A stretch of DNA of 64,000 nt from a virus, in the IMG/VR virus record IMGVR_UViG_3300028415_000003, positions 6,814 through 70,813 of that record; one strand, given 5' to 3'. The translations under genes and the position numbers were made by a program. The notes below the pieces were generated by a model, which had not been told where the DNA came from, did not search any database, and saw only the letters and a list, made by a program, of their open reading frames with translations. Of this stretch, positions 44,347-64,000 are shown one piece after another. Numbering within the stretch: position 1 is the stretch's first letter; each line of letters starts with the position of its first letter.

Positions 44347-44568
44347 TTCATTCTATTTAAGTTTTATTTGTTAATTAAAATAAACAAGTGGGCTTTCAGT
44401 AGCGATTTTCTTCCTTCGGATGTGCATCCTTTTCAGAGTCTTTCTACCTACTATATATCTGCACAGATACGCCCACCAGTATATAATTTAGTTAGCAGAA
44501 ATAGGGGTGATGCTCTTTGATTAAACATTCGTGATGAAAAAAATAAAAGAAAAACATCACCTGCATTT

Positions 44569-45150
44569 TTAGTAAATCAAATCAACATCTTTTTCATTTT
44601 CGGAAAAATACTTCTGCAAGTAATCCTTACCATACAAATTCAATGTTTGTGGACTTACTTTAAATTTCCATTTCTTACCGCTTGGTGTCGATTGTGGATA
44701 TTCTTCCCATTTACCACCTATGAAAGTTTTACCATCGCTATATTTACTTTCATTGCTGAATGTAATATGGTTTGGCTTCTTGTAGGTATCAGGCAAATGT
44801 CCTGTTTGTGGGTCAAATTTAAGCTTTCCAGCCTTGATGTCTTTCCAAGCACCTTGTAAGTCGTAAGAACCCATTTCATAAAGAACATTATCTTGTCATT
44901 TATATTTGTCGTTAGCCCATTTGTAGTATTCATCAAATTCAGGCTGTGTTAATCCTGTATTATAATTTGACACATACTTTAATGATGGGTCTTTAGCCCT
45001 TTCATTTCTGATTTTATCAGTCAAAGAAAGTTGTAGAAGTTTAGCAGGTTCTTTTCTCAATTGGGTAGTATATTGTTTACCGTTAAAAGCAAATTGTGCT
45101 AATCCTTGTTTTCTTGCATTCGCAAATGCAATTTCAAATTCTGTTGGCAT
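44569..45150 (-). pseudogene. Phage protein split by a single in-frame TGA (44896-44898)
   Basis: ORFs 44896-45150 and 44569-44874 are in the same frame: ...DKYK*QDNVLYEMGSYDL... Confidence 0.7.
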
Positions 45151-45253
45151 TATTTTTTATTTTTAAATTGTTTAATTAAGTCCCACGCTTCTTTTTTTTT
45201 TATTTTTTCTTTAGTGCTTCGATTGAAGTTAGATGGTGGGAATACCCTACTTC

Positions 45254-45384
45254 TGTTAACAGCACCTAACAAAAAGCGGGGGCGACCTGCCTCGTAGAAA
45301 CATTTGTGGTTTATTAAATTTCATATCTTCGTATTTAATTTTGTAGTTAATTCCCCGCCTTCTGTTAGCCGCAAACCGTTGTAA
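45254..45384 (+). repeat. attC-like recombination site
   Basis: TAAC-AGCAC-CTAACAAAAAGCGGGG (45266-45281) ... CCCCGCCTTCTGTTAG (45353-45368)-CCGCAAACC-GTT (45378); both stem mismatches are G:T pairs on the bottom strand. Confidence 0.72.
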
Positions 45385-45626
45385 AAAACAACCGAAATCA
45401 GATATAATTCGTTTTAATTAATGTGCCCTCGCCTTCTCACCAGTTTCATTTCAGCGTGTAAAGTTTCGTTTAATTTTAGGTTATAAATTGTTTTTTCCAT
45501 TTCGGTATATTTATTAAATACTATTTTGTTATCCATAATTTTAAGTGTTAAATTGTGAATGATTTAAATATTGATCTTTTTTTAATTTACATGATTATTT
45601 TATTTTAAGTTTGTAATTCTAATTCG

Positions 45627-46121
45627 TTAGCTGCAACTACTATCATACCGTTCTAGACTAGCTATTGTGTCGTGAATTGCCCCTCCGTGAGAAAACAATC
45701 CTATTTTTTCAACGTGAAAACCTCTATTTTTGCCCATCGTATTTGAATGATACCCGAATGTAATAACTATTCCCCCTTTATTTAATACATTATGTATTTC
45801 ATCTTTTAGTTGTTTGAATGGACTGCATCGGATACCTTTATACATCTCGATACTTTTCCGGTATGCATAAGGTGGGTCAAGCAATATAGTATCAAACTTT
45901 TCCCTTTTCCAAGTTCTTAACAATTTTAAAGCATCCATTCTATAATCAGCCAATGCTTCTGGGTCTAAATCATTTCTTACTTCATCAATGTTCAGCTTTG
46001 TTCTACCAGCAAAAAGGTTTAAAGTTCTTCCTTCGCAATTAAGCTCAACCCATTCCCTAATGTTTTTTACCGAAAAAGTATATCGGTGCAATGGGCATTT
46101 TATGTAATCAAATTTTATCAT
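45627..46121 (-). CDS. Small DNA adenine methyltransferase-like protein
   Basis: SAM-binding NLFAG and catalytic DPPY; the stop codon lies in an R-box-like GTTAGCTGC. Confidence 0.75.
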   Translation of the reverse strand: MIKFDYIKCPLHRYTFSVKNIREWVELNCEGRTLNLFAGRTKLNIDEVRNDLDPEALADYRMDALKLLRTWKREKFDTILLDPPYAYRKSIEMYKGIRCSPFKQLKDEIHNVLNKGGIVITFGYHSNTMGKNRGFHVEKIGLFSHGGAIHDTIASLERYDSSCS

Positions 46122-46663
46122 TTCATTTTTTTGTTTCCAAATAAATTTTTTGATATTAATTTGTAATAAACATATTTTGCACCGAGGTATTCCGATAATG
46201 TTTTAATGTCTTTTTTGTATACTGGAATCTCGATATATTTCCTTACTTTTTTTATTGAATACCGGACAGAAGTTTCTTTGATCGAAAAAATATCGGCAAT
46301 TTGTTTTCGTGATAATCCATTGTGATAGTAGAGAAAGAATATTACTATTTGTTTAGAATACCCACAAATGCCTTTATTCTTTAATTGGAAAATATTTTCT
46401 CGCTTTATATTAAAATAGTAAACAATAATGTCAATCGTCAGGTCTTTTCCTGATTTTCTGCTGAACTCTTGTAATAGTATTTCCTTTAAATCCGAAGGTG
46501 AGTGGATAGTATGGCCGTTAACAATGTAATTGGATATCATCGTCAATACGTTGTTCACAGGCACTTCATATGCTTTTGAGATAGCGTTAATAATATCATC
46601 CCAATTATTTACAGGAAGTGCTATTATTTTTTCGATAAATTCAATACTTTCTTTCTTTGACAT
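46118..46663 (-). CDS. DnaA C-terminal (domain IV)-like HTH protein
   Basis: 'YFNIKRENI...KQIVIFFL...LSRKQIADIF...TSVRYSIKKV' matches the DnaA_C pattern. Confidence 0.65.
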   Translation of the reverse strand: MSKKESIEFIEKIIALPVNNWDDIINAISKAYEVPVNNVLTMISNYIVNGHTIHSPSDLKEILLQEFSRKSGKDLTIDIIVYYFNIKRENIFQLKNKGICGYSKQIVIFFLYYHNGLSRKQIADIFSIKETSVRYSIKKVRKYIEIPVYKKDIKTLSEYLGAKYVYYKLISKNLFGNKKMK

Positions 46664-47211
46664 AGGTATTCTTTTAGTAGTTTGATTTTAAAATTAATCT
46701 TACGGCGTCTTGTGCCATTGTTCGTCCAGATATATCGTGTCGGAATAAAAGTTTTTTTAAACAATTCAACAGGTTTAATCAATTGGACATAAATATCGTG
46801 TTTATTATATATCCATTTTTGATTAAGCGTAAATGCTCTTGTCATGTTGTGCTGATCAAAGGAAGGTTTAATCTCAATAATACTTCTTGGTTTATCTACA
46901 AATTTAAACGCAGAGTTTGCAAGTATAAATGGAGTATTTTTTTCATTGAACCCTCCAATATAAGAAGTAAATATATCAGCAGCTATTTCATTCCAAACAA
47001 TTGTGAAATCCGGAGTATAAATGTGTTTATGCAGCAGCGTGTGCGATAAAGGTTTTTGTTTTGTCTTAAGCTGTTCAAACATTTTTATTTCTTTTTTATC
47101 GGAAAGAGAAATAACAGGGTGTTGAGGAATAATTTCTTCAACAAACCCTATTTTTTTTAAATCCTCTAAATACCAGTAAAAATATTTTTCTTCGTCGCTA
47201 TCAAATGTCAT
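46624..47211 (-). CDS. PD-(D/E)xK endonuclease (DUF1064/T7 endonuclease I-like resolvase)
   Basis: FDSDEE, YTPDF and IEIK motifs. Confidence 0.72.
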   Translation of the reverse strand: MTFDSDEEKYFYWYLEDLKKIGFVEEIIPQHPVISLSDKKEIKMFEQLKTKQKPLSHTLLHKHIYTPDFTIVWNEIAADIFTSYIGGFNEKNTPFILANSAFKFVDKPRSIIEIKPSFDQHNMTRAFTLNQKWIYNKHDIYVQLIKPVELFKKTFIPTRYIWTNNGTRRRKINFKIKLLKEYLCQRKKVLNLSKK

Positions 47212-47263
47212 GGCTTATGATTCAAGTGTTCTAAGAATACCTTGGAAAGGTATCTGTTTTACT

Positions 47264-47572
47264 TTAAAATAATTTTCCTTGCTCATACACTATTTCTTTT
47301 TCGTTAGTTATATCTTCTCTTCTTGGCTCTCGTTTATTTTTAAAGATAAAACGAATAAAACTTTCATACCCATATTTAGCTTGATAGGCAGCAACCCATT
47401 TGTTTGGATGATTTTGGCTCATGCCTATTACCCGTTGCCACATATGATATTGAAAAATTTTTTTTTTGCCATTAACAAGTACTGTGTATTCAGCATTGGC
47501 GATTGTGTTTCCTTTTACAGAAACAAGCTCAATATTTTGTCCGTCTTCAAGTTTAAATGATGTTATTACCAT
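47264..47572 (-). CDS. Hypothetical protein
   Basis: ORF in operon; ends in QGKLF. Confidence 0.5.
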   Translation of the reverse strand: MVITSFKLEDGQNIELVSVKGNTIANAEYTVLVNGKKKIFQYHMWQRVIGMSQNHPNKWVAAYQAKYGYESFIRFIFKNKREPRREDITNEKEIVYEQGKLF

Positions 47573-47814
47573 AAGATTATCAGATAAATTATAAGGTTCA
47601 ATAATGCAATTACGATGCTTAAAAGCACAAATTGTTTTAGCTTAATAACATGTCTTGCTTTTGATATACGATAAATTATTTTTTCATGTCCATTTATATA
47701 CCTTCCTCGACGATCTCTTTTTGGAACTATTTTAATAGTGAAATCATTATTAAATACAATAGCAAAAACAAAAAAAATAAATATTACAGTCGGTAAAAAA
47801 CTAATTATCTCCAT
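47566..47814 (-). CDS. Small two-TM membrane protein
   Basis: Two hydrophobic segments flanking a basic RDRRGRY loop. Confidence 0.55.
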   Translation of the reverse strand: MEIISFLPTVIFIFFVFAIVFNNDFTIKIVPKRDRRGRYINGHEKIIYRISKARHVIKLKQFVLLSIVIALLNLIIYLIILW

Positions 47815-47831
47815 GATTTTTTCTTATTTCG

Positions 47832-48010
47832 TTAAACAATCATTCGTGATGAAAAAATAAAAAACCCCACCCGCATTTTTAGTAAATCAAATCAACATCT
47901 TTTTCGTTTTCAGAGAAATACTTTTTCAGGTAGTCAGCACCGTATCTATCCAAAACTTGTTTGCTTGGTTTATAAAAAGACCTTTTTGTGTCAGCGTTTT
48001 GCCCCCATTC
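47832..48010 (-). pseudogene. Diverged duplicate of the 3' end and downstream flank of the 44569 gene
   Basis: Encodes ...YGADYLKKYFSENEKDVDLIY* (stop 47879-47881) versus YGKDYLQKYFSENEKDVDLIY*; the flank CATTCGTGATGAAAAAA...GCATTTTTAGTAAATC is also shared. Confidence 0.8.
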
Positions 48011-48383
48011 GCCTTCGCCAAGCCCGAAAACGTTGCCTACAATTAAAGAAAAACGGAATAAACAAAAATCTGTTTTTAGGTGTATCGCTAGTTTTTCTAC
48101 TTCCGTATTTCACTCTCATTTCTAATTCAATCAACTCTTTTGGTTTCGCTAACTCTCTATCAAGCTCACACCTTAATTCAATCATTTTTAATTCAAATTG
48201 TATCATATATGGTGGTTTTTCCCAATAAGGAAGGGATAGGTAGTGCATAGCAAAAGCATCTTCTTTTTCTTGTGCTTTATAGAAAGCATCGCACTGTTTG
48301 GGGTGTACTCTTTTTAATATTCGGTGGCTATTGCCGTTACTATCTACATACTCACCGTAAGATTTCTTATTTTCTCTTTTCAT
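47991..48383 (-). CDS. Hypothetical cassette-borne protein
   Basis: Lies between GTTGCCTACA (48032) and TGTGGGTAAC (48410-48419), complementary at 8/10; reads through the R box because CAA sits where TAA would be. Confidence 0.5.
   Translation of the reverse strand: MKRENKKSYGEYVDSNGNSHRILKRVHPKQCDAFYKAQEKEDAFAMHYLSLPYWEKPPYMIQFELKMIELRCELDRELAKPKELIELEMRVKYGSRKTSDTPKNRFLFIPFFFNCRQRFRAWRRRMGAKR
48009..48041 (+). repeat. 3' arm of an attC-like site
   Basis: CGCCTTCGCCAAGCCCGAAAACGTTGCCTACA parallels CGCCTTCTGTTAGCCGCAAACCGTTG at 45356-45381. Confidence 0.6.
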
Positions 48384-48424
48384 TTTTAATATAAATTATC
48401 GTTAATAACTGTGGGTAACACTGT

Positions 48425-49769
48425 GTGAACTACCCACACACTAAAAAGATGTGTGGGCTTCCTGTACAACGCATAGCCTAATGGCTTACGTTAGCGTACA
48501 AAGGGTTGTCCCTAACCCCGAAATTTTTTATATTATACGCAGCGTTAAGGTCTCTATCTATTGAATTATTACACTTATCACAATTATATGTCCTATCTGA
48601 AAGTTTTAAATCTTTCTTGTGGTTTCCACAATTAGAACATACCTTACTGCTCGGTCCAAATCTACCAATTACAACAAGGTTTTTACCTTGCCAATCAGTC
48701 TTATATTCAAGCATTGTTCTTAATTGTCGCCAACCCATATCAGATATTGCTTTAGCTAAATTATGGTTCTTAACCATATTACTAACAGCTAAATCTTCCA
48801 AAACAATCGTATCATACGTGTTTACTAATTCAGTAGATATTTTATGCAAGTAATCAGTCCTTTGGTTACGGATTTTTTCTTGCAATAATGCTACTTTTAA
48901 TTTTTGTTTTTCTCTATTTATCGAACCCTTTTGTTTTCTTGAAAGGCTTCTTTGTTCAACTCTTAATCTTCTTTGTTGTAATTTAAAGAAGTTTTTGTTT
49001 TCATATACTACGCCATCAGAAGTAATTGCTAAATCTTTAATACCAAAATCAATACCAACAGACGTTTCTGTTTTTATACTTTTTTGTTTTGGTTTTTCAG
49101 TTTGAGTATCAACCAATATTGAAACAAAGTATTTACCAGTTACCGTTTTCGTTAGTGTAACTCTTTTTGGTAAGCCTTTAAATTCTCTATGGTAGCCAAT
49201 AGCAACTTCTTTAAGTTTAGGTAATTTTAAAATATTATCCTTAAATGATATTTCAAATCCTTGTGGAAATGTAATTGACTGTTTAGAGTACTTATTTTTA
49301 AATTTAGGGAATTGACCCCTACCTTTAAAAAAGTTTTGGTATGCAGTATCTAAATTAATTATACTATGTTGTAAAACTTGGCTTGGACACTCTTTAATGT
49401 AATCAAACTCTTTTTTTAATTCTGGCAGTTGTTTAATTAAATCATACTTAGATATTGATGTTTTATTTGAAGCATACGCAACACTCTTAGTTTCTAAACC
49501 AAGGTTATACACCAATCTATTAACTCCAAAGTACCTTTGTAATTGGGCTTTTTGAGTTTCCGTTGGAAATATTCTGTATTTGTATCCTTTTAGCATATAT
49601 TATTAAATAGTCTAAACTTTTGTAAAAGTACAATATTTTTTATCTAAAATCAAGTTCTGGTTAAAATTTGTTTAATTGATACCATTAAACAATACATATT
49701 ATCACAAGGCTAATAGTCGCTTACATCCCATCCACGCTAAAGCGATGAATGGGTTTTACGCTCCAACGT
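48425..49769 (-). mobile_element. Non-autonomous IS200/IS605-family (IS1341-type, tnpB-only) element
   Basis: On the - strand: TTTAT target motif (49774-49770), left end with hairpin CCCATTCA-TCGCTTTAGCG-TGGATGGG, tnpB, right-end hairpin CCCACAC...GTGTGGG ending GGGTAGTTCAC; no tnpA. Confidence 0.88.
48478..49596 (-). CDS. tnpB: RNA-guided endonuclease TnpB
   Basis: N-terminal YKYRIFPT HTH; RuvC GIDFG / LEDL / DRDLNAA all intact; Zn ribbon CSNC...CDKC. Confidence 0.95.
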   Translation of the reverse strand: MLKGYKYRIFPTETQKAQLQRYFGVNRLVYNLGLETKSVAYASNKTSISKYDLIKQLPELKKEFDYIKECPSQVLQHSIINLDTAYQNFFKGRGQFPKFKNKYSKQSITFPQGFEISFKDNILKLPKLKEVAIGYHREFKGLPKRVTLTKTVTGKYFVSILVDTQTEKPKQKSIKTETSVGIDFGIKDLAITSDGVVYENKNFFKLQQRRLRVEQRSLSRKQKGSINREKQKLKVALLQEKIRNQRTDYLHKISTELVNTYDTIVLEDLAVSNMVKNHNLAKAISDMGWRQLRTMLEYKTDWQGKNLVVIGRFGPSSKVCSNCGNHKKDLKLSDRTYNCDKCNNSIDRDLNAAYNIKNFGVRDNPLYANVSH

Positions 49770-49851
49770 ATAAAGTAATGCCGAAATGATTGGTAAATCT
49801 TAATAATTGTATTTGCATGATCTCTCGCTTTAATAATTCAATAACTATAGA

Positions 49852-49859
49852 CAAAAGTA
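49852..49859 (-). promoter_or_regulatory. Bacteroidota sigma-70 type -7 element (TACTTTTG)
   Basis: Matches TAnnTTTG; points into the tnpB/cassette region. Confidence 0.45.
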
Positions 49860-49934
49860 AAAAAAATGATAACATAATCAAAATAATGACAACTAAATAA
49901 ATAAAAAGTAAGTAAAACCGTTGCTATTGATTGG

Positions 49935-49942
49935 TATATTTG
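49935..49942 (+). promoter_or_regulatory. Bacteroidota -7 element (TATATTTG), divergent
   Basis: Matches TAnnTTTG; ~75 nt upstream of a bidirectional terminator. Confidence 0.4.
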
Positions 49943-50015
49943 CCGTGAGTTTATTTTAAAAAAATCATTTGTTTATATTTTTCAATGTCTTACCATCAAT
50001 TCTTGCATACTACTG

Positions 50016-50048
50016 AAAAAAGCCGGATTCGTAGTCCGGCTTTTTTTT
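50016..50048. terminator. Bidirectional Rho-independent terminator
   Basis: A6-GCCGGATT-CGT-AGTCCGGC-T8. Confidence 0.88.
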
Positions 50049-50102
50049 ATGAATGCCCATGCCCTTGGGTCTTGTTAAGGCTTCTGGCACGCCTGATTCG
50101 TA

Positions 50103-51356
50103 TTATGCTTTTGTAGTATTTTCAGCCTTTTTTAAGGCTTTTTCAGATTTTAATTTGAATTTTGTTAGTGGCACTCCGGATATTTGCCCAACATTAGTCA
50201 TAATAATGTCTTTAAACCCTCCTTTTTCTTTCATGATACGGATGGATTCAATCATTCCCATTCGGGTAACATTGTCCATAATATCGAGTACACGGCATAG
50301 TTTTTTAGGGTTGTTAGGATCTTTCCTGAGCCCTCGTCCAACCATTTGATAATACAAAGCAAGTGACATTGTTGCTCTTGCCAGTGTAATTCCGTCAAGT
50401 GAAGGAAAGTCAAATCCAACAGTAAGCACACCCATATTAAACATATGCTTTATCTTTCCTTCCCGGAAAGCGTCAATCTTTTCTGTTCGTATGTTCATAG
50501 GTGTTTTCCCATGGATATAGTCGGCACTCATTCCCATCTCGCGTAGCATTTCAGCACTACGTCTTGCTTGTCTTACTGAACTGCAGAATATAAGGTTGTG
50601 ATTCACTTTCTTATCAAACCAAGCAATATTCGCAGCGAGTTTTTTTAGTCTTGCATCACTCCAAAATCTTTCGAGCTCAGCTTCATCAAAGTCTCCACCT
50701 ATAGTGTTGGTTTTAATTTTGCTTACATCAAAATGATTGCTGATGTGATATTTTATTGGTGACAAATACCCTTGTTTGAAAAGCGTATAATTGTCAATCT
50801 TGAAGGCTATTTTCTTGAAGAAAAACGGATAAATTCTGTTTACCATTTGAAGAGATTGGCTGTAAAATTTATCATCACCTTGGCTAAAATATTTTCCAAC
50901 CATACGGTATGGGGAAGCTGTCAATCCGCAAACATTTTTTGGCTGTATAGCTTCAAAAAATTGATTATACATGCCATTGAAGTTTTTAGGATTCAGCAGG
51001 TGGCATTCGTCAAGAATGATGTACTTGAACCTTTTAAAAAGTTCAGGGTTTTTATAGATACTCCCTATTGTAGCGTACGTGAATGTTGATATTTCCTTTT
51101 GACCAAAGCTGGCTGAATAAATAGAAACATCTAATATTCCATATGACAATAGTTTCTGAAAATTTTGTTCTAATATTTCCTTTGTTGGTTGCAGAATAAG
51201 AACAGGCTCTTTTATTTTTTGGACAATATCCGCTATTATAAGAGACTTTCCGCTACCAGTGGGTAATACTAACATGAAAGGCTTCTCGTAATTCATTAAA
51301 TGATATACAGCAGATTCAGAAGCTTGTTTTTGATATGGTCTTAGTGTAAATTTCAT
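50103..51356 (-). CDS. Superfamily 2 DNA helicase (DEXH; UvsW/YejH-like)
   Basis: LRPYQ, PTGSGKS, DECH, TASP, GFDFP, QMVGRGLR. Confidence 0.92.
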   Translation of the reverse strand: MKFTLRPYQKQASESAVYHLMNYEKPFMLVLPTGSGKSLIIADIVQKIKEPVLILQPTKEILEQNFQKLLSYGILDVSIYSASFGQKEISTFTYATIGSIYKNPELFKRFKYIILDECHLLNPKNFNGMYNQFFEAIQPKNVCGLTASPYRMVGKYFSQGDDKFYSQSLQMVNRIYPFFFKKIAFKIDNYTLFKQGYLSPIKYHISNHFDVSKIKTNTIGGDFDEAELERFWSDARLKKLAANIAWFDKKVNHNLIFCSSVRQARRSAEMLREMGMSADYIHGKTPMNIRTEKIDAFREGKIKHMFNMGVLTVGFDFPSLDGITLARATMSLALYYQMVGRGLRKDPNNPKKLCRVLDIMDNVTRMGMIESIRIMKEKGGFKDIIMTNVGQISGVPLTKFKLKSEKALKKAENTTKA

Positions 51357-51865: not shown

Positions 51866-51891
51866 ATGTTCTTTGTCTTTCTTTTGTGAAT

Positions 51892-53085: not shown

Positions 53086-53098
53086 GATTGTAAGTTTT

Positions 53099-53135
53099 AA
53101 AAAAAAAGCTATAACATTACACTATAGCCTTTTTT
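53099..53135. terminator. Putative terminator hairpin
   Basis: A-run-GCTATA...TATAGC-T-run downstream of the 53140 gene. Confidence 0.5.
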
Positions 53136-53139
53136 AGGT

Positions 53140-54033: not shown

Positions 54034-54053
54034 AATAACTCATTTTTAAGATT

Positions 54054-55669: not shown

Positions 55670-55681
55670 AATTCGTTTAAT

Positions 55682-57205: not shown

Positions 57206-58199
57206 TGTAGATGTGTTTTTTGATATGATATGAGCTGACGTTTCTCTTGACAAATACACGCTCTGCATAATCTGTAATATCATTGATCCATGTACTGTTT
57301 TTCAGCGTACAGTAACCAAGGATATCTGATAAATGCACTATTGGTATATCGTAAATGTCAACATTTTTTCGCATTCCAAGAACACCGGTTTTGTCATTGT
57401 CGTACATGATAAATAAATACGGTGTCTTTTTCATTAAATCCTTATACAGCCATTGCATAAGGAAAGCAGATTCACTGTTCAGGCTTACACACTTAATTCC
57501 TAGGTGTTCATACATTACAAGAACATCACGGTTCCCACCAATGATTCCAATGGCTGGTTCATGATCATTTAACGCTGAGTACCCGAATACTTCCTTTTCT
57601 GGGTTCATATTGTTTTTGAACTTAGATTTTTTCTCATGGAAAGGAGCATAAAATTTCTGTCCTTTGCCTTCTTGGAATAAGTATATAGGCTTTTGTTTTG
57701 TGGCGTGTGTGACTATGTTTGGATGTTCTTTTAGATGAAACCACTTAATAGGAATTGTATTGTAAACTTTTAGTGTAGAAAGAGAGATACCTGTTTTCCA
57801 CCAAAATTTTGTGTTGTCATTATCCCAATTTGTGGATTTATAAACAAACTCAGTTCTATCAAAGAATTTAGGTTTGGGGAGTTTAGGTATTTTCTTGATG
57901 GGTTTTCTTTTATAGTCTTTAACATCTTCCAAATGGAAATCACTTGCAATAATATCAAGACCATCCCGGAAAGATACCTCATAATAGATCATTACATAAC
58001 CAAAAGCGTCTATAGCTTTAAATGCAAAGTCGTTATAAAGATACTTTCTGGAACGATTTCCATAAAATACATTAGCTGAAGGGTGTTTTTCTTCTCTTAA
58101 CTCAGAAATGAATGCCTTCCCTAATGTAAAATCATGGTTGATGTATTTCCGGAGGATATCAAGTTCATTGATGTGCTCAAGAATATCTTCTTTTTTCAT
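57141..58199 (-). CDS. DNA primase (crAss-like, TOPRIM)
   Basis: SELREEKHPS, YNDF, GNRDVLV, SLNSES, MYDNDKTG. Confidence 0.85.
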   Translation of the reverse strand: MKKEDILEHINELDILRKYINHDFTLGKAFISELREEKHPSANVFYGNRSRKYLYNDFAFKAIDAFGYVMIYYEVSFRDGLDIIASDFHLEDVKDYKRKPIKKIPKLPKPKFFDRTEFVYKSTNWDNDNTKFWWKTGISLSTLKVYNTIPIKWFHLKEHPNIVTHATKQKPIYLFQEGKGQKFYAPFHEKKSKFKNNMNPEKEVFGYSALNDHEPAIGIIGGNRDVLVMYEHLGIKCVSLNSESAFLMQWLYKDLMKKTPYLFIMYDNDKTGVLGMRKNVDIYDIPIVHLSDILGYCTLKNSTWINDITDYAERVFVKRNVSSYHIKKHIYNAIKTYQNRKLQKVNRAQYTH

Positions 58200-58201
58200 C
58201 T

Positions 58202-58966
58202 CTAAAAAGGTAAATCATCTTCTTTATCAGGGCTGGTTCCTATACTGTTCATATCAGCCGAAAAGTTATCGACATTGGAAGGAATACCTTCTTCGTTTTG
58301 ATTGGGCAAGGAAGCGCTTTGATTACGTTTTTTGGCAAGCACTTTCTTTTTAGTAGTTTCACTGATTTTCCAAACCTTGTTTTTTATGCTTTTGTCAAGA
58401 TTTTCAGCTTTTTTGATATCGCCTGTTATCGAAGTTATGGAAGGCATGTACAGCTCAGGAGAAAGAATAAGCCTGTCTTTGTAAACGATTTCACGGTGTA
58501 TGACAATTCCGTAAAATGCTATTTCTCTTCCCTTGAAATGTTCTAATCCTTTAGTAAGAACTGTTGCAATTTCTTCAAGATCGGCTTCTTCATTTTTGAA
58601 TTGAATTTGTTTACCAAAAGCATCATCAATAAAACCATAAAGCTGTTCAAAAGAAATACATTTTGGATCTCCGGTTTCTTTATCTTCAAAGGTAAAGAAT
58701 GGAAATTCCATACGGAAATCAAAATAATTGTTTTTACTGTTTTTCAGGGCTGTATTTAATTTAAGAATAATTTTCTGAACTTTTTTTCTCTCGTCGGTTT
58801 TTTTATCGTTGAACTCAAACGATGTGTGCTCAACGTCAACAATTACAAGTTTTCCAAGTCCTGTAGGAAATTTTTCCTTGTTCATGTTTTGAATGGATTT
58901 CTCTTTAGCTTCTTTACTCTCGCTAATTGTTTTTTCAAGTGCGTTTTTTCTTACATTAATTTTCAT
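58202..58966 (-). CDS. Putative single-stranded DNA-binding protein
   Basis: Acidic C-terminal tail EDDLPF; next to primase and helicase. Confidence 0.65.
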   Translation of the reverse strand: MKINVRKNALEKTISESKEAKEKSIQNMNKEKFPTGLGKLVIVDVEHTSFEFNDKKTDERKKVQKIILKLNTALKNSKNNYFDFRMEFPFFTFEDKETGDPKCISFEQLYGFIDDAFGKQIQFKNEEADLEEIATVLTKGLEHFKGREIAFYGIVIHREIVYKDRLILSPELYMPSITSITGDIKKAENLDKSIKNKVWKISETTKKKVLAKKRNQSASLPNQNEEGIPSNVDNFSADMNSIGTSPDKEDDLPF

Positions 58967-59171
58967 AAGTTTGATTTTTTGTATAAATGTTTTAAACTCG
59001 TTATAAATATTATAGCTAATGAAAAAGACATATTTTTTATTAATCCTTTTCGCATTGATAATTCATAAGCTGTACCAGGCTCTTTATTTAGTTGGTCAAT
59101 AAGTTTCTTTTTTTTCTGATTTTTAAATGAATACGCAATGTCAATTATTTTTTGTACTCTTTGTGCTTTAT

Positions 59172-59230
59172 ATTAGGGAGCATAAAACCCATTCATCACT
59201 TTTGCGTGAAGCCGTGGGTGAGTAGTTCAC
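59172..59230 (+). mobile_element. 59-bp miniature IS200/IS605 derivative inserted in dnaB
   Basis: TTTAT (59167-59171), then GGAGCATAAAACCCATTCATCACTTTTGCGTG (matches the tnpB element left end) fused to GTGGGTGAGTAGTTCAC (right end). Confidence 0.85.
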
Positions 59231-60560
59231 TCCACTCATTAAATTTACAGTATTTTAGGTTTTCTAAATAACGAATTAGACCAAGTTCACTTTCCCTGTT
59301 TTTCGTCACGTCAAGAATAATCAAGTGTTCAAATACATTGTATTTTTCTTTGGACACTCGAAGTTTCTCTGCTATTTTTAAATCAGGAAATAATGAAGGG
59401 CGGTTCATAAGTATAACCTGATTTGCATAATCTGCAATTCGAGAAGATCCCCGTACATCTGAATCTCTTAGTCTGTAACCTTCAGTCATGCGTTTTTTGT
59501 TCTGTGATTCCTTTGTTACGTGGTGAATAACGATAATAATGCCTTTGGTATAGTCACGTAATTCAACCAATTTTTTGGCAATTAAATCATCATTCTCCAA
59601 TTGATGTTTCTTGTCAATTCCACTGACAAGACCAAGGTTATCAATAATCAAAACATTGGCTTTGGTTGGTCTCAAAATACAAAAGCGCTTAAAATCATTG
59701 CATATCTGATAGATATTTTTCGGTTTGGTAATGAACTCTACATCATCCTTATCGTATTGATTGTAAATCGCTTCCATGTCCTTAATATTACGATCAGTTA
59801 AACTGTGATTTCGTGATTGAATTTGGCGTTCTGTTAAATTTAAGTGACTGCTAACAACATTACGAAGAATAGCTTCACCGGATACTTCATAAGTGTGCCA
59901 GTTAATTGCTACATCTTTGTTGTGTTTTAATAAGTTAAAGGCATAATGAATAGAGAATTTTGTCTTTCCTGCCCCTTTTTGAGCAGCAATTAAAATGATG
60001 TTACCAGGACTAGTCGCTATGAAATGGTCAAAGTTTTTGTCTCCGGTTTCTAGGTAAGGCTTTTTTGCTCCAGATGCTTTCATTCGTACATCTTCAAGCA
60101 TAGACTTGAAAGATAATTTCAGTGTTTTTTGATCCTTGCTGTTTAAAGATAAATTGGAAATTTCTGTTTCGATTTTTTGTGTGATTTCGTCAGCAGGATA
60201 TTCTCCAAGCATTTTTTTAATTGTTTGGCTGAGCTCTAAGAGTTTCTTTTCGTTGTAGTTACCAATAATTACTGAGAGGTGATATTGCCATTTATCTTCA
60301 TCCTCATATTCGGTATTTATAAGGTTTTTGAAAATATCAATGTAATCTTCATTACCGCTTGATTCAAAAGCGTCAGTCATTGTTGATAAGCAGATTTCTT
60401 CATCTTGTTCTGAGATTAATTTGTAAATCGCCCAGAACATTGCATTTTTTTCATCCGTAAACATTGTTGCAGTAAGCTTTTTCTCTATAGAATAGTACAC
60501 TGCCAGATGATTAAAGCATTGTTTTAAGATGTTTTTTTCATAATTTTTCTCCTTTACCAT
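59196..60560 (-). CDS. dnaB: Replicative DnaB-like helicase (C-terminus altered by mini-IS)
   Basis: AAQKGAGKT, YEVS, IIDNLGL, DVRGSSRIADYANQVI, KNRE. Confidence 0.88.
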   Translation of the reverse strand: MVKEKNYEKNILKQCFNHLAVYYSIEKKLTATMFTDEKNAMFWAIYKLISEQDEEICLSTMTDAFESSGNEDYIDIFKNLINTEYEDEDKWQYHLSVIIGNYNEKKLLELSQTIKKMLGEYPADEITQKIETEISNLSLNSKDQKTLKLSFKSMLEDVRMKASGAKKPYLETGDKNFDHFIATSPGNIILIAAQKGAGKTKFSIHYAFNLLKHNKDVAINWHTYEVSGEAILRNVVSSHLNLTERQIQSRNHSLTDRNIKDMEAIYNQYDKDDVEFITKPKNIYQICNDFKRFCILRPTKANVLIIDNLGLVSGIDKKHQLENDDLIAKKLVELRDYTKGIIIVIHHVTKESQNKKRMTEGYRLRDSDVRGSSRIADYANQVILMNRPSLFPDLKIAEKLRVSKEKYNVFEHLIILDVTKNRESELGLIRYLENLKYCKFNEWSELLTHGFTQK

Positions 60561-60867
60561 ATAGATAATAATCTAAATATTCATTTTTATCACTTTCCTT
60601 GAAGTCCTGAAGAAATATACGTTTTTCCAGATAATCAAAGAGATCTTTTTTTTTCGTATAGAACTGTTTTTCGCGACCCATATTTCGGCTGTCGATATAC
60701 TCATTATACTCTTTGAATCGCTTTTTAATGAAGTCGAAATCAATGTTGTTACCATCGAGATCTGGAATCCACCCAAGAGCAAATTGCAAAGACGAAAATG
60801 CTTTATCAAAATCGCCAGTCGGATTTATTGGCCATAGTTCTTTATGAAACCGGTCTTTTAAATTCAT
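60538..60867 (-). CDS. Hypothetical protein, possible replication initiator/helicase partner
   Basis: Overlaps the dnaB start. Confidence 0.4.
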   Translation of the reverse strand: MNLKDRFHKELWPINPTGDFDKAFSSLQFALGWIPDLDGNNIDFDFIKKRFKEYNEYIDSRNMGREKQFYTKKKDLFDYLEKRIFLQDFKESDKNEYLDYYLYGKGEKL

Positions 60868-60882
60868 AAGAATTTTTTAGTT

Positions 60883-61116
60883 TTAGTTCAACATTATTGT
60901 TGTGAATACAAAATAGCGGGAAGGATACTTAAACGGAATACTTTTGAATTGGAGATAGTCGCCTTTTTCGTATATAATTTTCCTGTCCAAGATATAAAAC
61001 TGATGTTTATCCAACTCAGGGTTCATACGCAGAAAGTTGTCCAAACTCTCCACGTTTTTTTTCAACTTGAAGACGATTGGTGCTATCACTGTTCCAATTA
61101 ATATTTCGTTTTTCAT
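60883..61116 (-). CDS. Hypothetical protein
   Basis: First ORF downstream of the promoter motif at 61144-61151. Confidence 0.45.
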   Translation of the reverse strand: MKNEILIGTVIAPIVFKLKKNVESLDNFLRMNPELDKHQFYILDRKIIYEKGDYLQFKSIPFKYPSRYFVFTTIMLN

Positions 61117-61143
61117 AGTTTATCTTCTCGCAATTACTTGATA

Positions 61144-61151
61144 CAAATGTA
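61144..61151 (-). promoter_or_regulatory. Bacteroidota -7 element (TACATTTG) heading the replication operon
   Basis: TAnnTTTG consensus ~28 nt upstream of the ATG at 61116. Confidence 0.55.
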
Positions 61152-61164
61152 AAGATAATATTAA

Positions 61165-61494
61165 TTAATTCAATAATTGTAACTCAATATTTATTCCTAC
61201 ATTTCTGTATTTGATATTTCCATCTTTATCTAATCCTGTGATTTTGAAATTGATAAGTTTTACTCTATGAGCAATTACATTTTCTAAGTATTTGAATTGC
61301 AGTTGTCCAATTTCTAATTTCATATTCCAATGTTTTACGGTACATTGAAGCGTATTTAAATCGATTTCAAAAGAAGATCGATCCATTTTATCAGGTAAAA
61401 GAGAAATATCAAATAGGTTAAACTGGATTTTTGTTTTGGAAGTTCCAACCAATTTTGATCGGATAAATGTTCCATTTTCGTTGGTTATTAGCAT
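61165..61494 (-). CDS. Hypothetical protein
   Basis: 109-aa ORF; no recognised motif. Confidence 0.45.
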   Translation of the reverse strand: MLITNENGTFIRSKLVGTSKTKIQFNLFDISLLPDKMDRSSFEIDLNTLQCTVKHWNMKLEIGQLQFKYLENVIAHRVKLINFKITGLDKDGNIKYRNVGINIELQLLN

Positions 61495-61564
61495 TTTTCA
61501 TTAAATTTGATAAATAATTATTGTAAATAAATTGTTATATTAATTAATTTCTAAATAAATTTAT

Positions 61565-61798
61565 ATGGTTTTGCAGGAGAAAAAAGTTATAAGTTACACA
61601 ACATTAGTTAAAACGAGACTTAGCAATGAATACGGAATTGAGCTTGATAGGCGTGCAATTCATCAAACAATTAATTATGCTCTTAAAAATATTGTAAACG
61701 CCATGTACCATTTATGGTTAATCGAAATAAAGAATTATATGTTTATTCGGCCAAATCAACATCGAAGACAGCTAAAGTTGAATCAACTTAAAAGATAG
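61565..61798 (+). CDS. Small basic protein, possibly HU/IHF-like
   Basis: Helix-helix-strand pattern ('IEIKNYMFIRP'); divergent orientation. Confidence 0.35.
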   Translation: MVLQEKKVISYTTLVKTRLSNEYGIELDRRAIHQTINYALKNIVNAMYHLWLIEIKNYMFIRPNQHRRQLKLNQLKR

Positions 61799-62340
61799 TT
61801 GTGATTATTGTAAAGTATGGCTTTCACAATAATTCGGAAGTACAAGATTGTACTTATCCTCTATTAATAGTTAAGAATTAATCTAAACTGTTATATTTAT
61901 GAATTATTTTTCACATTCATAAAATGTAAGCGTTTCATTTACAATATTATCATGTTATTCTATATGTGTTCCGGGGTTGAAAGTGTCAAAAAAAGTTTAT
62001 AACTTCGTATCCTCAAATTACGCTCAGCATCTTTTTCTATTCTTATTCTATATTTTTTCTTTTCTTTTTAATCTTTTAAAAATTCCATTAATTTTCAAAC
62101 TCTCGGAGATAAACGCAGGGAAGGTGTAGTATAAAGCCAAAGCATCTGTATGCATTATATAGTAAATTCAATTGCTTTTTTTATAAATTGTCATATAGAA
62201 ATTATTCAAGCATTATAAAGGATTTGTGTCACAGGTTACATATACTTTGTTGGTTGTGCCAATCAAACTTTCCTGTCCTTCAGAATATACTTTCTCTACT
62301 AACATAACGTGCGCGTGCGCGTATATTAGAATTTTTGAAA

Positions 62341-62412
62341 GTGAACTATTCACTCACATCAGTTGACTTCTGAAGTCCATCCCATTTCTTCTGGCGTGGG
62401 TGGGTAGTTCAC
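62341..62412. repeat. Back-to-back pair of IS200/IS605 right ends
   Basis: GTGAACTATTCACTCAC ... GTGGGTGGGTAGTTCAC (inverted, 14/17). Confidence 0.7.
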
Positions 62413-62423
62413 TAGTAAATATT

Positions 62424-62536
62424 GTAGGGAAGTTAAGACTCGAACTTAACAGGCTAGTAAAACACAGTACTATGAATTACTTTAGGAGACCGCCAAACCA
62501 ATAAATTATTGGTATTAATATCTCTTATTTTCCCTA
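62424..62536 (-). ncRNA. tRNA-like structured element (non-canonical)
   Basis: TAGGGAA/TTCCCTA closing stem; T-arm GTTAAG-TTCGAGT-CTTAAC; internal hairpins; no canonical D or anticodon arm. Confidence 0.45.
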
Positions 62537-62564
62537 GGTCTTTATAAAATCTTCAATGAGTTCA

Positions 62565-62810
62565 CTATATCAGTTCTTCTATTAGATTTGTGGCCGCTTC
62601 ACCATATTTTTGATATATATAATCAAATAATGAAACTGTACCCATATCTAGATGATAACAATTATCCGGATTATAGAGATCGTCTTTCTCTTTTAATGAG
62701 TTTTCAAATTGTTCAATATCGAATGATTTTATACTCATTGAAAGAAAAACTGTAGAGTATGGCACCCGAAAGCCAAAAACGCTTTCAAATATTTTTTCAT
62801 TTTCCGTCAT
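62565..62810 (-). CDS. Hypothetical protein
   Basis: 81-aa ORF with an AT-rich leader. Confidence 0.5.
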   Translation of the reverse strand: MTENEKIFESVFGFRVPYSTVFLSMSIKSFDIEQFENSLKEKDDLYNPDNCYHLDMGTVSLFDYIYQKYGEAATNLIEELI

Positions 62811-62855
62811 ATATTAAATTTTTAGTTATTAAATCGCACTAACCATACACGGATG

Positions 62856-63092
62856 TTAGTTTTTATTTGCTAATATTTTATCTAATTCCTTAACAGACTC
62901 ATCTATAATCCAATTGCGTTCAGAGCAACCGCAATCGAACCCTTTATAACTATCACAGATACAACCGACATCTAATCCAATAATCATATTTTTCATGCTG
63001 ATTAGTGTTTCTTTGTCGGGTTCATTAGCATTTTCTAAGTGGTTTTCTGCCATTTTTATCACTTCTTTTAGTGCTATTTTTATAAAATCCAT
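62856..63092 (-). CDS. Small Cys-rich hypothetical protein (likely cassette-derived)
   Basis: CIC...CGC; the stop codon coincides with GTTA of an attC-arm-like CATACACGGATGTTAG. Confidence 0.5.
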   Translation of the reverse strand: MDFIKIALKEVIKMAENHLENANEPDKETLISMKNMIIGLDVGCICDSYKGFDCGCSERNWIIDESVKELDKILANKN

Positions 63093-63152
63093 ATTTCTAA
63101 TTTTTTAATTTCACGTAAAGGTGTCTTTATTCGCTTGTTACCTGCAATGCCT

Positions 63153-63938
63153 TTACCACAATCGTAATTGACGTTTGAACGTATTAAAACGCTCTTCTTG
63201 CAAGCTCCAGTATTCTTTATCTATTTCCCAGCCTCTAAACTCGCAATTTGCTAAATCAGCTTCTATGCGTATCGAGCCACCGCCTACGTGGGTATCAAGT
63301 AGCTTCATTCCTTCAAAGCCGTAATCCGCAATTAATTTTTTATACAACAGTTGTGGTTTATGGCAAGGATGCAATCTCTTTTCATTCAACTTCTTATTTC
63401 CTTGTTGCGTCATAGGTTTTTTTAGGCTTTTAGCTTGGCACATTCCAGCCCACAACAAAGGCAATTCAATTTCGTGGTCAATCAAGCTACAGTAAGCCAT
63501 TTCATATTTTTTGAAACTCATACCTTCTGCTACGCCTTTGTTCCACTTAATACGCCCTGTGCCTAATCCTTGCCAATCGACATATTCTATTCCAAAAATT
63601 ATTTGCTCCTTACTAACTCTCTGCAATTCATTAAAGTATTCCTGTGAAGGTAGCTCTTTGTCCCATTGCTTTTGCGTATATGGCTTTTTGTTTTTGTTGC
63701 CGTTTAGCCTTGTTCCATTTTTCTGCTTAACTGTTGTGTTCGTTTCTTTAAGATAAGCCATATTCGCAACATCAATTCCGTAAGGTATATCGCAAATTGC
63801 TAAATCGAAGTAGTTATTTGGGAAGCGTTTTAATCCTTGCATACAATCTTCATTGAACACAATAGAAGGCACAGCAGGTAACAACGTGTCATACTGCATA
63901 GCCTCTGTATTTTCGGTGTTTATATCTCGTTCAATCAT
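63153..63938 (-). CDS. DNA methyltransferase (N6-A/N4-C, beta class)
   Basis: NEDCM, DLAICDIPYG (motif IV variant), HPCHKP, LDTHVGGGS, GWEID. Confidence 0.88.
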   Translation of the reverse strand: MIERDINTENTEAMQYDTLLPAVPSIVFNEDCMQGLKRFPNNYFDLAICDIPYGIDVANMAYLKETNTTVKQKNGTRLNGNKNKKPYTQKQWDKELPSQEYFNELQRVSKEQIIFGIEYVDWQGLGTGRIKWNKGVAEGMSFKKYEMAYCSLIDHEIELPLLWAGMCQAKSLKKPMTQQGNKKLNEKRLHPCHKPQLLYKKLIADYGFEGMKLLDTHVGGGSIRIEADLANCEFRGWEIDKEYWSLQEERFNTFKRQLRLW

Positions 63939-64000
63939 TTGTGTATTTTTAAAAGTTTGTGGCTCGTTTCAACTGGCTACGCAGCATACACAAACCGTTA
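63874..64000 (+). repeat. attC-like recombination site
   Basis: GGTAAC-AAC-GTGT[C]ATACTGCATAGCC ... GGCTACGCAGCATACAC-AAACC-GTTA; one extra C in the left arm (extrahelical G on the bottom strand); mismatches are bottom-strand G:T. Confidence 0.78.

Follow-up and report, generated by a model that had tools for sequence, protein, structure and literature searches.

Does a crAss-like phage keep some of its accessory genes as integron-type cassettes, and if so, which enzyme would move them? The question is raised by a distant crAss-like lake phage known from a 70.8-kb contig (81% complete), in which we analyzed a window of 64,000 nt. An earlier note, based on sequence alone, had proposed that gene-bearing segments between 44491 and 64000 are cassettes flanked by integron attC sites and recombined by a host IntI or another integrase encoded elsewhere. 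We regard it as likely that a gene-exchange system resembling integrons, common to phages and Bacteroidota, is represented in the window by two clear cassettes and a third that has decayed, and that a DNA methylase gene and at least one further accessory gene are kept as swappable cassettes between folding hairpins. As the note had stated, such sites are not part of standard descriptions of Crassvirales: a literature search brought up no article on integrons or attC-type sites in this group. One review contains "crAss-like" once, alongside attC and integron, and a further search listed no paper containing "Crassvirales". Coordinates below are those of the plus strand, and "sense" denotes the minus strand, on which the cassette gene block is encoded; all features described lie on the minus strand.

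Junction sites, units and genes in the window

The first, attC-like junction site (45245-45381) matches a strict junction grammar, of which it is the sole match in the 70.8-kb contig (0.07 matches per shuffle, 30 shuffles). Its parts are a CAAC core (45378-45381), a 5-nt spacer (ggttt, 45373-45377), the 20-nt 5' arm of the L stem (45353-45372), a 70-nt loop (45283-45352), the 3' arm of the L stem (45262-45282), a 1-nt spacer (t, 45261) and the left end-repeat of a unit encoding a 193-aa protein (45245-45260, sense GTTAACAGAAGTAGGG). The pairing pattern of the 20-bp stem is WWgxWWWWWWgWWgWWWWWW (W, Watson-Crick; g, G.T; x, mismatch); its G.T pairs occupy stem positions 3, 11 and 14, of which the last two are the pair found across the family. 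The right end-repeat of the same unit lies at 44491-44506 (sense CCCTATTTCTGCTAAC), the unit ending on the C of a TAAC (44491), and the two ends (45260/44491) form 14 of 16 Watson-Crick pairs plus one G.T.

The second site (63866-64000) has its TAAC core (63997-64000) at the very end of the contig, followed in the sense direction by the spacer ggttt (63992-63996), one stem arm (63975-63991), a loop, the other arm (63886-63903), the spacer gtt (63883-63885) and a left end-repeat (63866-63882, beginning in sense with GTTACCTGC) that lies inside the methyltransferase reading frame. Its stem contains two G.T pairs and one bulged G, in arm 63886-63903. The right end-repeat of the methyltransferase unit is at 63137-63153 (sense AAGGCATTGCAGGTAAC), and complementarity between the ends 63882/63137, previously seen as nine of nine positions, in fact runs over 17 positions with one mismatch and one G.T. 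A third, degenerate unit (48032-48419) comprises a left repeat (48406-48419), a right repeat (48032-48045) and a 130-aa ORF (47991-48383) with no family match, whose 3' end contains the right repeat; judged by eye, its ends (48419/48032) pair at 11 of 14 positions plus a G.T at position 11, and its core has changed from TAAC to CAAC. Next to it (47879-48031) lies what remains of a gene paralogous to the 193-aa gene, its final ~45 codons, with the downstream flank repeated to 47829.

Both palindromes and all three pairs of complementary ends listed in the earlier note are real. Among the additional half sites, that in the 48410/48032 area belongs to the degenerate unit, the one at 62844-62859 has neither hairpin nor partner, and the one at 45626 is just a TAAC at a stop codon, its one support being a metagenome contig that starts 28 nt off, at 45657. 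An extrahelical G, named as an attC hallmark, is present in site 2, but most sites have no bulged bases. The 7-mers RYYYAAC and GTTRRRY, also named there as hallmarks, are not enriched in 44491-64000 (RYYYAAC, 19 vs. 18.2 +/- 3.8; GTTRRRY, 11 vs. 21.5 +/- 4.1). We also observed that the core reads CAAC rather than TAAC at two places in the window, and that the units are isolated, ~18 kb apart, and form no array.

The 193-aa cassette gene (44569-45150) belongs to no Pfam or PHROG family, and its homologues (73-83% identical) are found in otherwise unrelated viral contigs. At 44896-44898 its frame is interrupted by a TGA; four homologues have GGA (Gly) at this place, and the window copy therefore carries a nonsense mutation. 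The stop-broken gene, the degraded unit, the two CAAC cores and the lack of an array count against the cassette reading. The second cassette gene (63153-63938) encodes an N6/N4 DNA methyltransferase (PF01555, phrog_23224) whose homologues begin ~35 codons later, inside the hairpin loop. The left box of this unit is coding and reads LLPAVP in the window vs. VLGAVP in relatives, with compensating changes in the right box. One homologue (47% identical) lies upstream of the recombinase gene of its locus (L180), between detected units.

A family signature and the movement of its units

Across the family, a 15-bp inverted repeat (GTTA...TAAC), whose position 11 is almost always a G.T wobble, closes each unit, and neighbouring units are separated by a hairpin of the form (T/C)AAC|G, 5-nt spacer, ~20-bp stem with two G.T wobbles, loop, T|GTTA. 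With a unit signature that requires GTTA/TAAC ends, a G.T at position 11 and pairing at no fewer than 13 of the remaining 14 positions, the contig contains 2 signature pairs (mean 0.01 in 100 shuffles) and the related crAss-like contig G001 contains 11 (0.02 in 100 shuffles), along with 12 strict junction matches (0.03 in 30 shuffles). The signature was derived from these same relatives, and later recurred in loci chosen by other criteria. Of 281 phage-type junctions, 273 have a G directly after AAC and 272 have a T directly before GTT.

Covariation supports a paired structure. In 277 units, positions 5-10 and 12-15 show all four Watson-Crick pair types, with a mean of 9.56 of 10 positions paired (3.94 with shuffled partners) and pairing that ends at 15 bp; because the units were selected for pairing, only this 15-bp limit and position 11, which played no part in choosing them, are unbiased in the set. 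Position 11 is Watson-Crick in 4/36 views of the phage set, 14/456 of the viral set and 0/96 of the bacterial set, the remainder being G.T, or A.C as the other-strand view, plus a few other mismatches. In folding, which the earlier note had suggested as a check, composite site 2 is more stable on the sense strand (-23.1 vs. -18.5 kcal/mol), as are 9/10 composite sites; plain folding of the two palindrome stretches in their array form, against 200 shuffles, is weak (z = -1.7, with 12/200 shuffles as good, and z = -0.4).

Comparison with relatives reveals that the units change places, as expected of mobile cassettes between structured sites. Both orders of the methyltransferase and 193-aa units are seen in L035 and G002, and G001 has the two units in other contexts. 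G001 has three ORFs in common with the contig and no more (tblastn E <= 1e-5): those of the two units and a 61-aa ORF that corresponds to the window ORF at 47566-47814. The breakpoints, which the earlier note had predicted to fall at the core, do so: for the methyltransferase unit, each of the six homology-block ends is 0-4 nt away from a TAAC, and homology of the 193-aa unit to L034, L035 and G002 stops exactly at 44491, the C of TAAC.

Lake metagenomes extend this to populations, with contigs in which the 193-aa unit is missing or replaced. For instance, 44335-45001 has a depth of ~2 in the runs X14 and X16, vs. 18 and 7 in the flanks. A contig from run X14 joins 44363 to 45548, the latter inside a TAAC, at a joint that may represent replacement by ~47 other letters instead of a clean deletion, and contigs from run X16 break off at 44320 and start again at 45657. 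The metagenome variants diverge from the window at a pair of TAAC cores (45547-45550 and 45626-45629). Neither an excised circle nor an empty site was seen among the assembled metagenome contigs.

A cassette is thus one unit of hairpin site plus gene, which in the sense direction reads (T/C)AAC | G, 5-nt spacer, ~20-bp two-wobble stem, loop, return arm, T, GTTA, 15-bp box, gene and a complementary box ending TAAC |, where the loop can hold the start codon of the gene. In a circularized unit, the two boxes and the hairpin would make one long folded site, of which a tyrosine recombinase may cut one folded strand at AA|C or AAC|, much as IntI does at attC; such cutting would allow units to be inserted, excised and reordered.

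The probable recombinase and the relation to integrons

Searches with PF00589 and TIGR02249 found no tyrosine recombinase in the contig, in agreement with the earlier placement of the enzyme outside the window, and PF00589 is also absent from the four related contigs G001-G004 and from G005, a viral contig sharing only a helicase with this phage. Since the available 70.8 kb do not encode the enzyme, the phage would need either supply in trans, from the host or a co-infecting phage, or a gene in the missing ~19% of its genome.

Elsewhere, this class of sites is linked to a recombinase. Units are present in 9/14 bacterial loci picked solely by orthology of an Xer-type recombinase without the IntI insertion, starting ~105-110 nt from the 3' end of the recombinase gene in 6/9 and further off in 3/9, and in 59/80 viral loci with a relative of this recombinase, compared with 0/10 canonical IntI loci. 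The array-linked recombinase aligns to IntI with the IntI-specific insertion missing, scores 209-211 bits on TIGR02249 (cut-off 265 bits) and has NF040815, "tyrosine recombinase/integron integrase", as its best profile. By association, the enzyme acting on these sites would be a short Xer-type recombinase of this kind. Smyshlyaev et al. 2021 (PMC8138268) noted that the IntI insertion is not fully conserved in an "integron-like" subgroup of simple tyrosine recombinases, and the accessible part of that paper assigns no cassette array or site to members without it.

To compare the sites with true attC, we used two Bacteroidota integrons with IntI (L119 and L124), whose 24/24 attC sites read nnnTAAC|G, 4-nt spacer, L stem, loop, T-GTTAnnn; the plan of the phage sites matches that of these bona fide attC sites. 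Both kinds are folded imperfect palindromes of 70-150 nt that separate single-gene units, and both have a core that does not vary (AAC/GTT, here TAAC/GTTA), a G next to AAC, a spacer that is unpaired and asymmetric, and an inner stem closed by a variable loop. In both, the cassette end is complementary to the far side of its own site, exchange is at the core, and one strand folds better than the other. In contrast, the phage sites have a 15-bp outer helix whose position 11 is a fixed G.T (the attC R box is 7 bp) and an inner stem with two fixed G.T wobbles where attC has bulged bases, and the phage genes lie on the strand matching the attC bottom strand, so that each site is upstream of its own gene and the classical orientation is inverted. 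Moreover, the enzyme linked to phage-type sites lacks the IntI insertion, and this contig has neither an attI site nor an integrase.

The closest described case is that of CALINs (attC clusters without integrase) in virulent phages, such as Polaribacter phage P12002L with its methyltransferase cassettes (Qi et al. 2023, PMC9892861). P12002L is likewise a virulent phage of a Bacteroidota host with DNA methyltransferases between attC-like hairpins and no integrase in its genome, where we found junctions built alike (TAAC|g, spacer, stem, GTTA), which may be those tested by Qi et al. The accessible part of that paper treats the sites as ordinary attC for IntI and describes no 15-bp closing helix, fixed wobbles, inverted gene orientation or non-IntI recombinase; its main text contains "crAss" and "Bacteroid" zero times and does not mention crAss-like phages. 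Unlike CALINs, the sites in the window are too widely spaced for one cluster.

Alternative readings

The units are integron-like cassettes, and classical IntI is probably not their enzyme; membership in the classical IntI family is not supported by the locus counts given above. That they are ordinary attC sites, with classical cassettes recombined by a host IntI, seems to us unlikely. The site plan is that of Bacteroidota attC; a host IntI is plausible, given TIGR02249 integrases above the curated cut-off in 113/401 sampled genomes from the phylum of a Puia (Bacteroidota) genome; and IntI1 recombined 5/6 attC sites predicted in virulent phages, one of them from P12002L, according to Qi et al. 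2023 (PMC9892861). Yet signature units occur beside the Xer-type recombinase and in none of the canonical IntI loci, the TIGR02249 match is absent or weak in five bacterial genomes with such arrays, and both the scarcity of bulged extrahelical bases and the inverted genes depart from classical cassettes. We hold it quite improbable that the helices instead act in RNA, in mRNA processing, stability or termination around each cistron, with shuffling by ordinary homologous recombination. Homologous recombination at similar intergenic sequences has been suggested to shuffle the promoter stem-loop cassettes of T4-type phages, and in the phage units the G.T wobbles lie on the gene-sense strand (G.U pairs in mRNA), start codons lie in hairpin loops and sense-strand folds are mostly the stabler. 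However, in 19/23 units of bacterial arrays with this signature the wobbles are on the strand antisense to the genes, and the bias therefore belongs to a DNA strand rather than to mRNA; breakpoints fall at a 4-nt core and not inside long shared sequence, and the tight linkage to a recombinase gene also speaks against an RNA role.

Chance matches, or leftovers without present function, are a very unlikely explanation: 7-mer counts at or under chance, our estimate that inverted matches of 9/9 or 14/16 positions within 1 kb arise by chance several times per 20 kb, and the broken gene and degraded unit would suit it, but the shuffle controls, covariation, population polymorphism and recurrence of the signature in loci picked by unrelated criteria do not. 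Finally, we give hardly any credence to the units being non-autonomous IS200/IS605-type elements moved single-stranded by a Y1 (HUH) transposase. Unit boundaries do fit insertion 3' of a tetranucleotide, and the window holds an IS200/IS605-type element with tnpB only (48425-49774; tnpB ORF 48478-49596), which has hairpin ends conserved in at least 12 other viral contigs, and whose relatives carry an extra ~475 nt at the expected place of tnpA. Against this, a search of the contig yielded no Y1 transposase, the gene to which arrays are linked is that of a tyrosine recombinase and not tnpA, and units have one large left hairpin plus a long-range 15-bp closing helix instead of two similar subterminal hairpins. 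The element resembles known TnpB-bearing IS200/IS605 members in its OrfB_IS605, Cas12f-like TNB and HTH domains and its insertion 3' of TTAC (49775-49778), and differs from them in that the window copy has no tnpA. It has inserted into a junction stem, in the 3' arm and 5 nt before the GTTA at 48419, and is a passenger inside the junction site, not the mover of the cassettes.

Junction hairpins and shared units in a distant crAss-like phage

On its sequence, the window holds cassettes belonging to an integron-like system; its sites share the build of attC, and it is linked to a recombinase of the Xer type rather than to IntI, with a recombination chemistry that we infer. The source contig is viral, 70.8 kb long and rated 81% complete; the window covers its positions 6814-70813 and ends where the contig ends. 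Structural genes, among them a 6605-aa ORF, occupy the plus strand; from 42144 on, the minus strand takes over with genes for a helicase, a primase, DnaB, a Sak4-like protein and two DNA methyltransferases, together with many ORFs without a known family. A 473-aa protein resembles the major head proteins of crAss-like phages (~23% identity, E values down to 5e-15), and this match, together with the structural and replication gene content, therefore identifies a distant crAss-like phage, in agreement with an earlier note on this DNA. The runs holding the phage are lake-water and salt-lake metagenomes, and megablast of window positions 44000-64000 against phage records gave no match.

Two complete junction hairpins lie in the sense (minus-strand) orientation. 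Site 1 (45381-45245) reads CAAC (45381-45378), ggttt, a 20-nt arm, a loop, an arm, t and GTTAACAG (45260), and it is the sole match to the strict junction grammar in the contig, compared with 0.07 expected from shuffles. Site 2 (63866-64000) follows the same plan and fits the grammar when one bulge is allowed; the contig breaks exactly at its TAAC core. Core sites with inverse AAC/GTT arms are thus present in both (CAAC...GTTA in site 1, TAAC...GTTA in site 2), AAC is followed in each by ggttt facing 1-3 nt on the opposite arm (an unpaired asymmetric spacer), and the inner stem has one bulged base in site 2, a G, and none in site 1. The earlier note had proposed bottom-strand folding as a check: plain folding of the palindromes as it delimited them gave weak z-scores (-1.7 for the minus strand of the first, -0.4 for both strands of the second), while the outer limits it assigned to site 1 are correct, as the junction plan of relatives makes clear. 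An internal TAAC (45364-45367) considered as the junction of site 1 was dropped, being part of the inner stem, and the folds labeled "win_193" rest on this slightly wrong boundary.

Two units, one around a 193-aa gene (45260/44491) and one around a methyltransferase gene (63882/63137), are each closed by a 15-bp helix with G.T at position 11, and a third (48419/48032), which brackets a 130-aa ORF, keeps this closing helix in degraded form. Positions 62844-62859, previously listed among half sites or R-boxes, lack junction-type structure. The complete sites are 18.6 kb apart with end boxes and one disrupted site only between them, and nowhere in the window do two or more attC sites lie within a few kb of each other, as the CALIN criterion has it. 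The RYYYAAC/GTTRRRY cores that had been put forward as a hallmark are not enriched: in 44491-64000 these 7-mers occur at or below chance (RYYYAAC 19 vs. 18.2 +/- 3.8, GTTRRRY 11 vs. 21.5 +/- 4.1, 100 shuffles), and neither of the boxes, GTTAACA or GTTACCT, conforms to GTTRRRY. Motif searches with CCCYRCYTTYTGTTARS, TTYTGTTARC and CACAAATGTTTCTACGARGC in the window, and with a 16-mer in viral contigs (14 single matches, 0 paired), revealed no dispersed repeat family.

The 193-aa gene (44569-45150) has homologues 73-83% identical in four viral contigs; two peptide patterns found no relative of the protein in bacterial genomes. DNA similarity to three of these four relatives spans exactly 45261 to 44491, the complementary cassette ends that the earlier note had recognized, and the 16-nt inverted repeat flanking the gene is kept in every relative with compensating changes. 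An in-frame TGA (44896-44898) is replaced by GGA (glycine) in all four homologues, which rules out recoding and therefore makes it a nonsense mutation of the window copy; with this TGA in place of a glycine codon, the cassette seems to be in decay. The gene also has a duplicated 3' fragment at 47879-48031.

Homologues of the terminal methyltransferase of the window lie directly before the 193-aa gene in two viral loci (L034, L035), directly after it in a third (L036) and 2.3 kb away in a fourth (L037). In three contexts, all six ends of the homology blocks of the methyltransferase unit fall 0-4 nt from TAAC, which places the breakpoints of relatives at the core, and the hairpin upstream of each gene moves along with that gene. 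We also compared the window contig with G001, a 49-kb crAss-like contig with a 5482-aa ORF: common to both at tblastn E <= 1e-5 are only the 193-aa gene, the methyltransferase and a 61-aa ORF (window ORF 47566-47814), and the shared genes thus sit in phages otherwise unrelated at this threshold. Ten cassette ORFs of G001 (loci L039 and L040, 33986-47940) compared with Pfam yielded two N6/N4 DNA methyltransferases and eight ORFs without a family, and a further methyltransferase cassette of this contig is the homologue of the window gene. A homologue 47% identical to the window methyltransferase is found in another viral locus (L180), upstream of a recombinase gene and between detected units.

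A wobble-marked signature and the recombinase linked to it

By scanning for GTTA...TAAC pairs, we found a closing helix pattern, GTTA(N6)G(N4)...(N4)T(N6)TAAC, in which position 11 of the 15-bp helix sets a G of the 5' arm against a T of the 3' arm. G001 contains 11 such signature units (vs. 0.02 in shuffles) and the window contig 2 (vs. 0.01). Between units, the junctions share one plan: (T/C)AAC is followed by G and ~5 nt, then by a stem of 17-21 bp with its 35-75 nt loop, and past the return arm 1-2 nt, the last of them T, lead to GTTA. The stem carries two G.T wobbles three or five positions apart. Hairpins were counted as members if AAC was followed by G, a 3-6 nt spacer and a stem, 17 bp or longer, containing G(5')-T wobbles, and if T preceded GTT. 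Among 281 family junctions the core is TAAC in 255 and CAAC in 23, and most were recovered by the ungapped grammar without any bulge, with fixed G.T wobbles instead. This grammar is blind to bulged true attC sites, with one match each in two Bacteroidota integrons next to IntI (L119, L124), and is therefore unfit as a general attC detector.

Covariation was assessed in 277 units from phage, viral and bacterial loci, all with G.T at position 11. Positions 5-10 and 12-15 contain all four Watson-Crick pair types, with 9.56 of 10 positions paired vs. 3.94 with shuffled partners, although units were chosen for pairing (position 11 being left out of the selection), which leaves the position-11 result and the 15-bp limit as the only unbiased ones. 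Position 11 is Watson-Crick in 4/36 views of the phage set, 14/456 of the viral set and 0/96 of the bacterial set, and pairing beyond position 15 is at chance level.

The 70.8-kb contig (81% complete) has no tyrosine recombinase or integron integrase (no PF00589 or TIGR02249 match at E <= 1) and encodes no Y1 transposase, nor does an Xer-type recombinase lie next to the window units anywhere in it. With no recombinase gene in the available sequence, the enzyme must therefore act in trans or its gene must lie in the missing part. A pattern taken from phage junctions, TAACGN{8,10}TTGSCGAAG, matched 118 of 401 genomes; a reversed control also matches many of these 118, and therefore only clustered matches were followed. 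These fall in Bacteroidota genomes; in five loci retrieved from them, the same units and junctions recur as arrays, at TAAC-to-GTTA distances of 116-119 nt. In one of them (L137, genome G163) the gene for a 391-aa tyrosine recombinase lies 67 nt from the last unit, and an orthologue 61% identical lies a few kb past another array. The enzyme matches NF040815 best (227.7 bits) and scores 209-211 bits with TIGR02249, below its 265-bit cut-off; its alignment with IntI contains 43 gap positions where IntI carries its own insertion.

The association also holds when loci are chosen by the enzyme. Of 14 further bacterial loci selected solely by recombinase orthology, nine have units 3' of the gene, and in six of these loci the units begin ~105-110 nt from the gene end. 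Of the five without units, two are truncated at contig ends, and in three the N-terminus differs. Likewise, 59 of 80 viral contigs with a relative of the recombinase (41-49% identical) carry units, mostly ending ~70 nt before the gene; among four viral recombinases scanned, three are short and all score below the TIGR02249 cut-off. In the bacterial loci (L136-L159) genes run opposite to the wobble strand, the strand carrying the fixed G.T bases, and the recombinase gene comes first; in the viral loci (L160-L239) the wobble strand is the coding strand and the recombinase gene stands last. Seen along the polarity of the sites, bacterial and viral arrays alike have the recombinase at the same end.

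Relation to integrons and a proposed mechanism

Gene capture by cassette is the textbook role of integrons, which are thought to depend on a special insertion in IntI that reads bulged bases. The earlier note had attributed the window sites to a host IntI or to an integrase outside the window. In the phylum of a Puia genome, integrases above the curated TIGR02249 cut-off are present in 113 of 401 sampled genomes; the IntegronFinder 2.0 paper (PMC9024848) reports very few integrons in complete Bacteroidetes genomes. Among loci with such an integrase, L119 and L124 are clear integrons: they carry at least 12 and at least 13 attC sites, respectively, and their genes lie on the opposite strand. 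In their 24 attC sites, which come from two genomes and are closely alike, nnnTAAC is followed by G, ACCC, a bulged inner stem, the loop and T-GTTAnnn, and these true Bacteroidota sites likewise keep only nnnTAAC/GTTAnnn and not the full RYYYAAC/GTTRRRY. The phage junctions resemble attC in the core, the asymmetric spacer, the inner stem, the loop and the G after AAC, a base given for attC by Bouvier et al. (2009, PMC2727003). What sets them apart is the 15-bp outer helix, the use of wobbles at places that are bulged in attC, and the orientation of the genes. Qi et al. (2023, PMC9892861) describe CALINs in 17 phages, one of them the virulent Polaribacter phage P12002L, which has methyltransferase cassettes, and report that IntI1 recombined five of six tested sites. 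We find that P12002L has junctions of the present plan and no PF00589 gene, although these junctions need not be the sites assayed by Qi et al. Against classical IntI as the enzyme, none of 10 canonical IntI loci contains signature units.

Gene orientation separates the two systems further. A classical attC site lies 3' of its own gene with its bottom strand antisense, whereas the window hairpin has its gene downstream, and that gene travels with it. The ORF lies on the wobble strand in both window units (a third scored pair is a spurious match inside the giant ORF), in 15/15 scored pairs of G001, some of them nested, and in 197/215 from viral loci, but opposite it in 19/23 bacterial units; the window units show the viral pattern. 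That the wobble bias lies on the DNA strand antisense to bacterial genes argues against a purely RNA-level role.

We tentatively suggest, as a possibility we rate somewhat below its negation, that crAss-like phages take part in a phage-Bacteroidota cassette network served by an Xer-type recombinase, not IntI, supplied in trans, with wobble-marked hairpins and inverted cassettes. What the enzyme would recognize is a folded single-stranded hairpin, marked not by bulged bases but by fixed G.T wobbles, and phages without the enzyme, like this one, would borrow it in trans. Phage cassettes are inverted relative to host cassettes; each would therefore carry start signals of its own within the hairpin loop, and on capture by a host array it would lie antisense and hence be silent.

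The literature searched contains no report of attC-type sites or integrons in crAss-like phages or Crassvirales (one review has "crAss-like" once beside attC and integron), and no description was found of an insertion-less recombinase with cassette arrays in Bacteroidota; the Xer-type cassette system of phages and Bacteroidota is without a name and absent from the papers searched. An attC site plan with wobbles for bulges, which travels with an insertion-less recombinase, is shared by numerous viral contigs and by genomes of Bacteroidota; stand-alone cassettes in a distant crAss-like phage can now be added to these. For the variable accessory regions of crAss-like phages, this would offer a mechanism. 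If this mechanism holds, the capture of cassettes by way of hairpins arose, or has been retained, beyond the IntI family, and it would explain how lytic Bacteroidota phages trade anti-restriction methyltransferases and unknown small genes across very distant lineages; the structural marks by which a plain Xer-like enzyme selects its strand could then be tested.

Variation among metagenome runs and the tnpB element

Contigs of four metagenome runs were placed on 43001-63000; these are assembled contigs, not reads, no circle junction was seen in them, and uncovered parts carry no weight. Depth over 44335-45001 is ~2 in runs X14 and X16, compared with 18 and 7 in the respective flanks. In one X14 contig, 44363 is followed, after ~47 letters of its own, by 45548, a position within the TAAC at 45547-45550, so that a replacement rather than a clean deletion may be involved. 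Contigs of X16 end at 44320 and restart at 45657, 28 nt from the TAAC at 45626-45629.

An IS200/IS605 element (48425-49774), its conserved ends set by comparison with copies in 17 viral loci, carries tnpB (ORF 48478-49596, with domains PF01385, PF07282 and PF12323) without tnpA, and is inserted after TTAC (49775-49778), within a junction stem, in its 3' arm. At least 12 other viral contigs have copies of the element, 83-96% identical along ~1.26 kb, some of these copies with an extra ~475 nt at the place expected for tnpA, and depth over the element in X16 is 133 vs. 7 in the flanks. The element does not point to a host, its best bacterial match being 45% identical. At 52327-52659, an X10 contig has instead 33 letters resembling the left end of the tnpB element, which looks like a small IS-end derivative, polymorphic in the population.

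A tRNA search and an Rfam search at the gathering threshold found nothing. Positions 61495-62564 form 1070 nt without long ORFs, in which one stretch resembles the 3' half of a tRNA with no ARAGORN call, a 36-nt inverted repeat lies at 62327-62426, and insertion polymorphisms among runs occur at 62307-62343. Finally, two patches inside ORF 55682-57283 (56375-56615 and 57041-57151) keep the same length with diverged sequence in contigs of two to four runs, forming local hypervariable patches.
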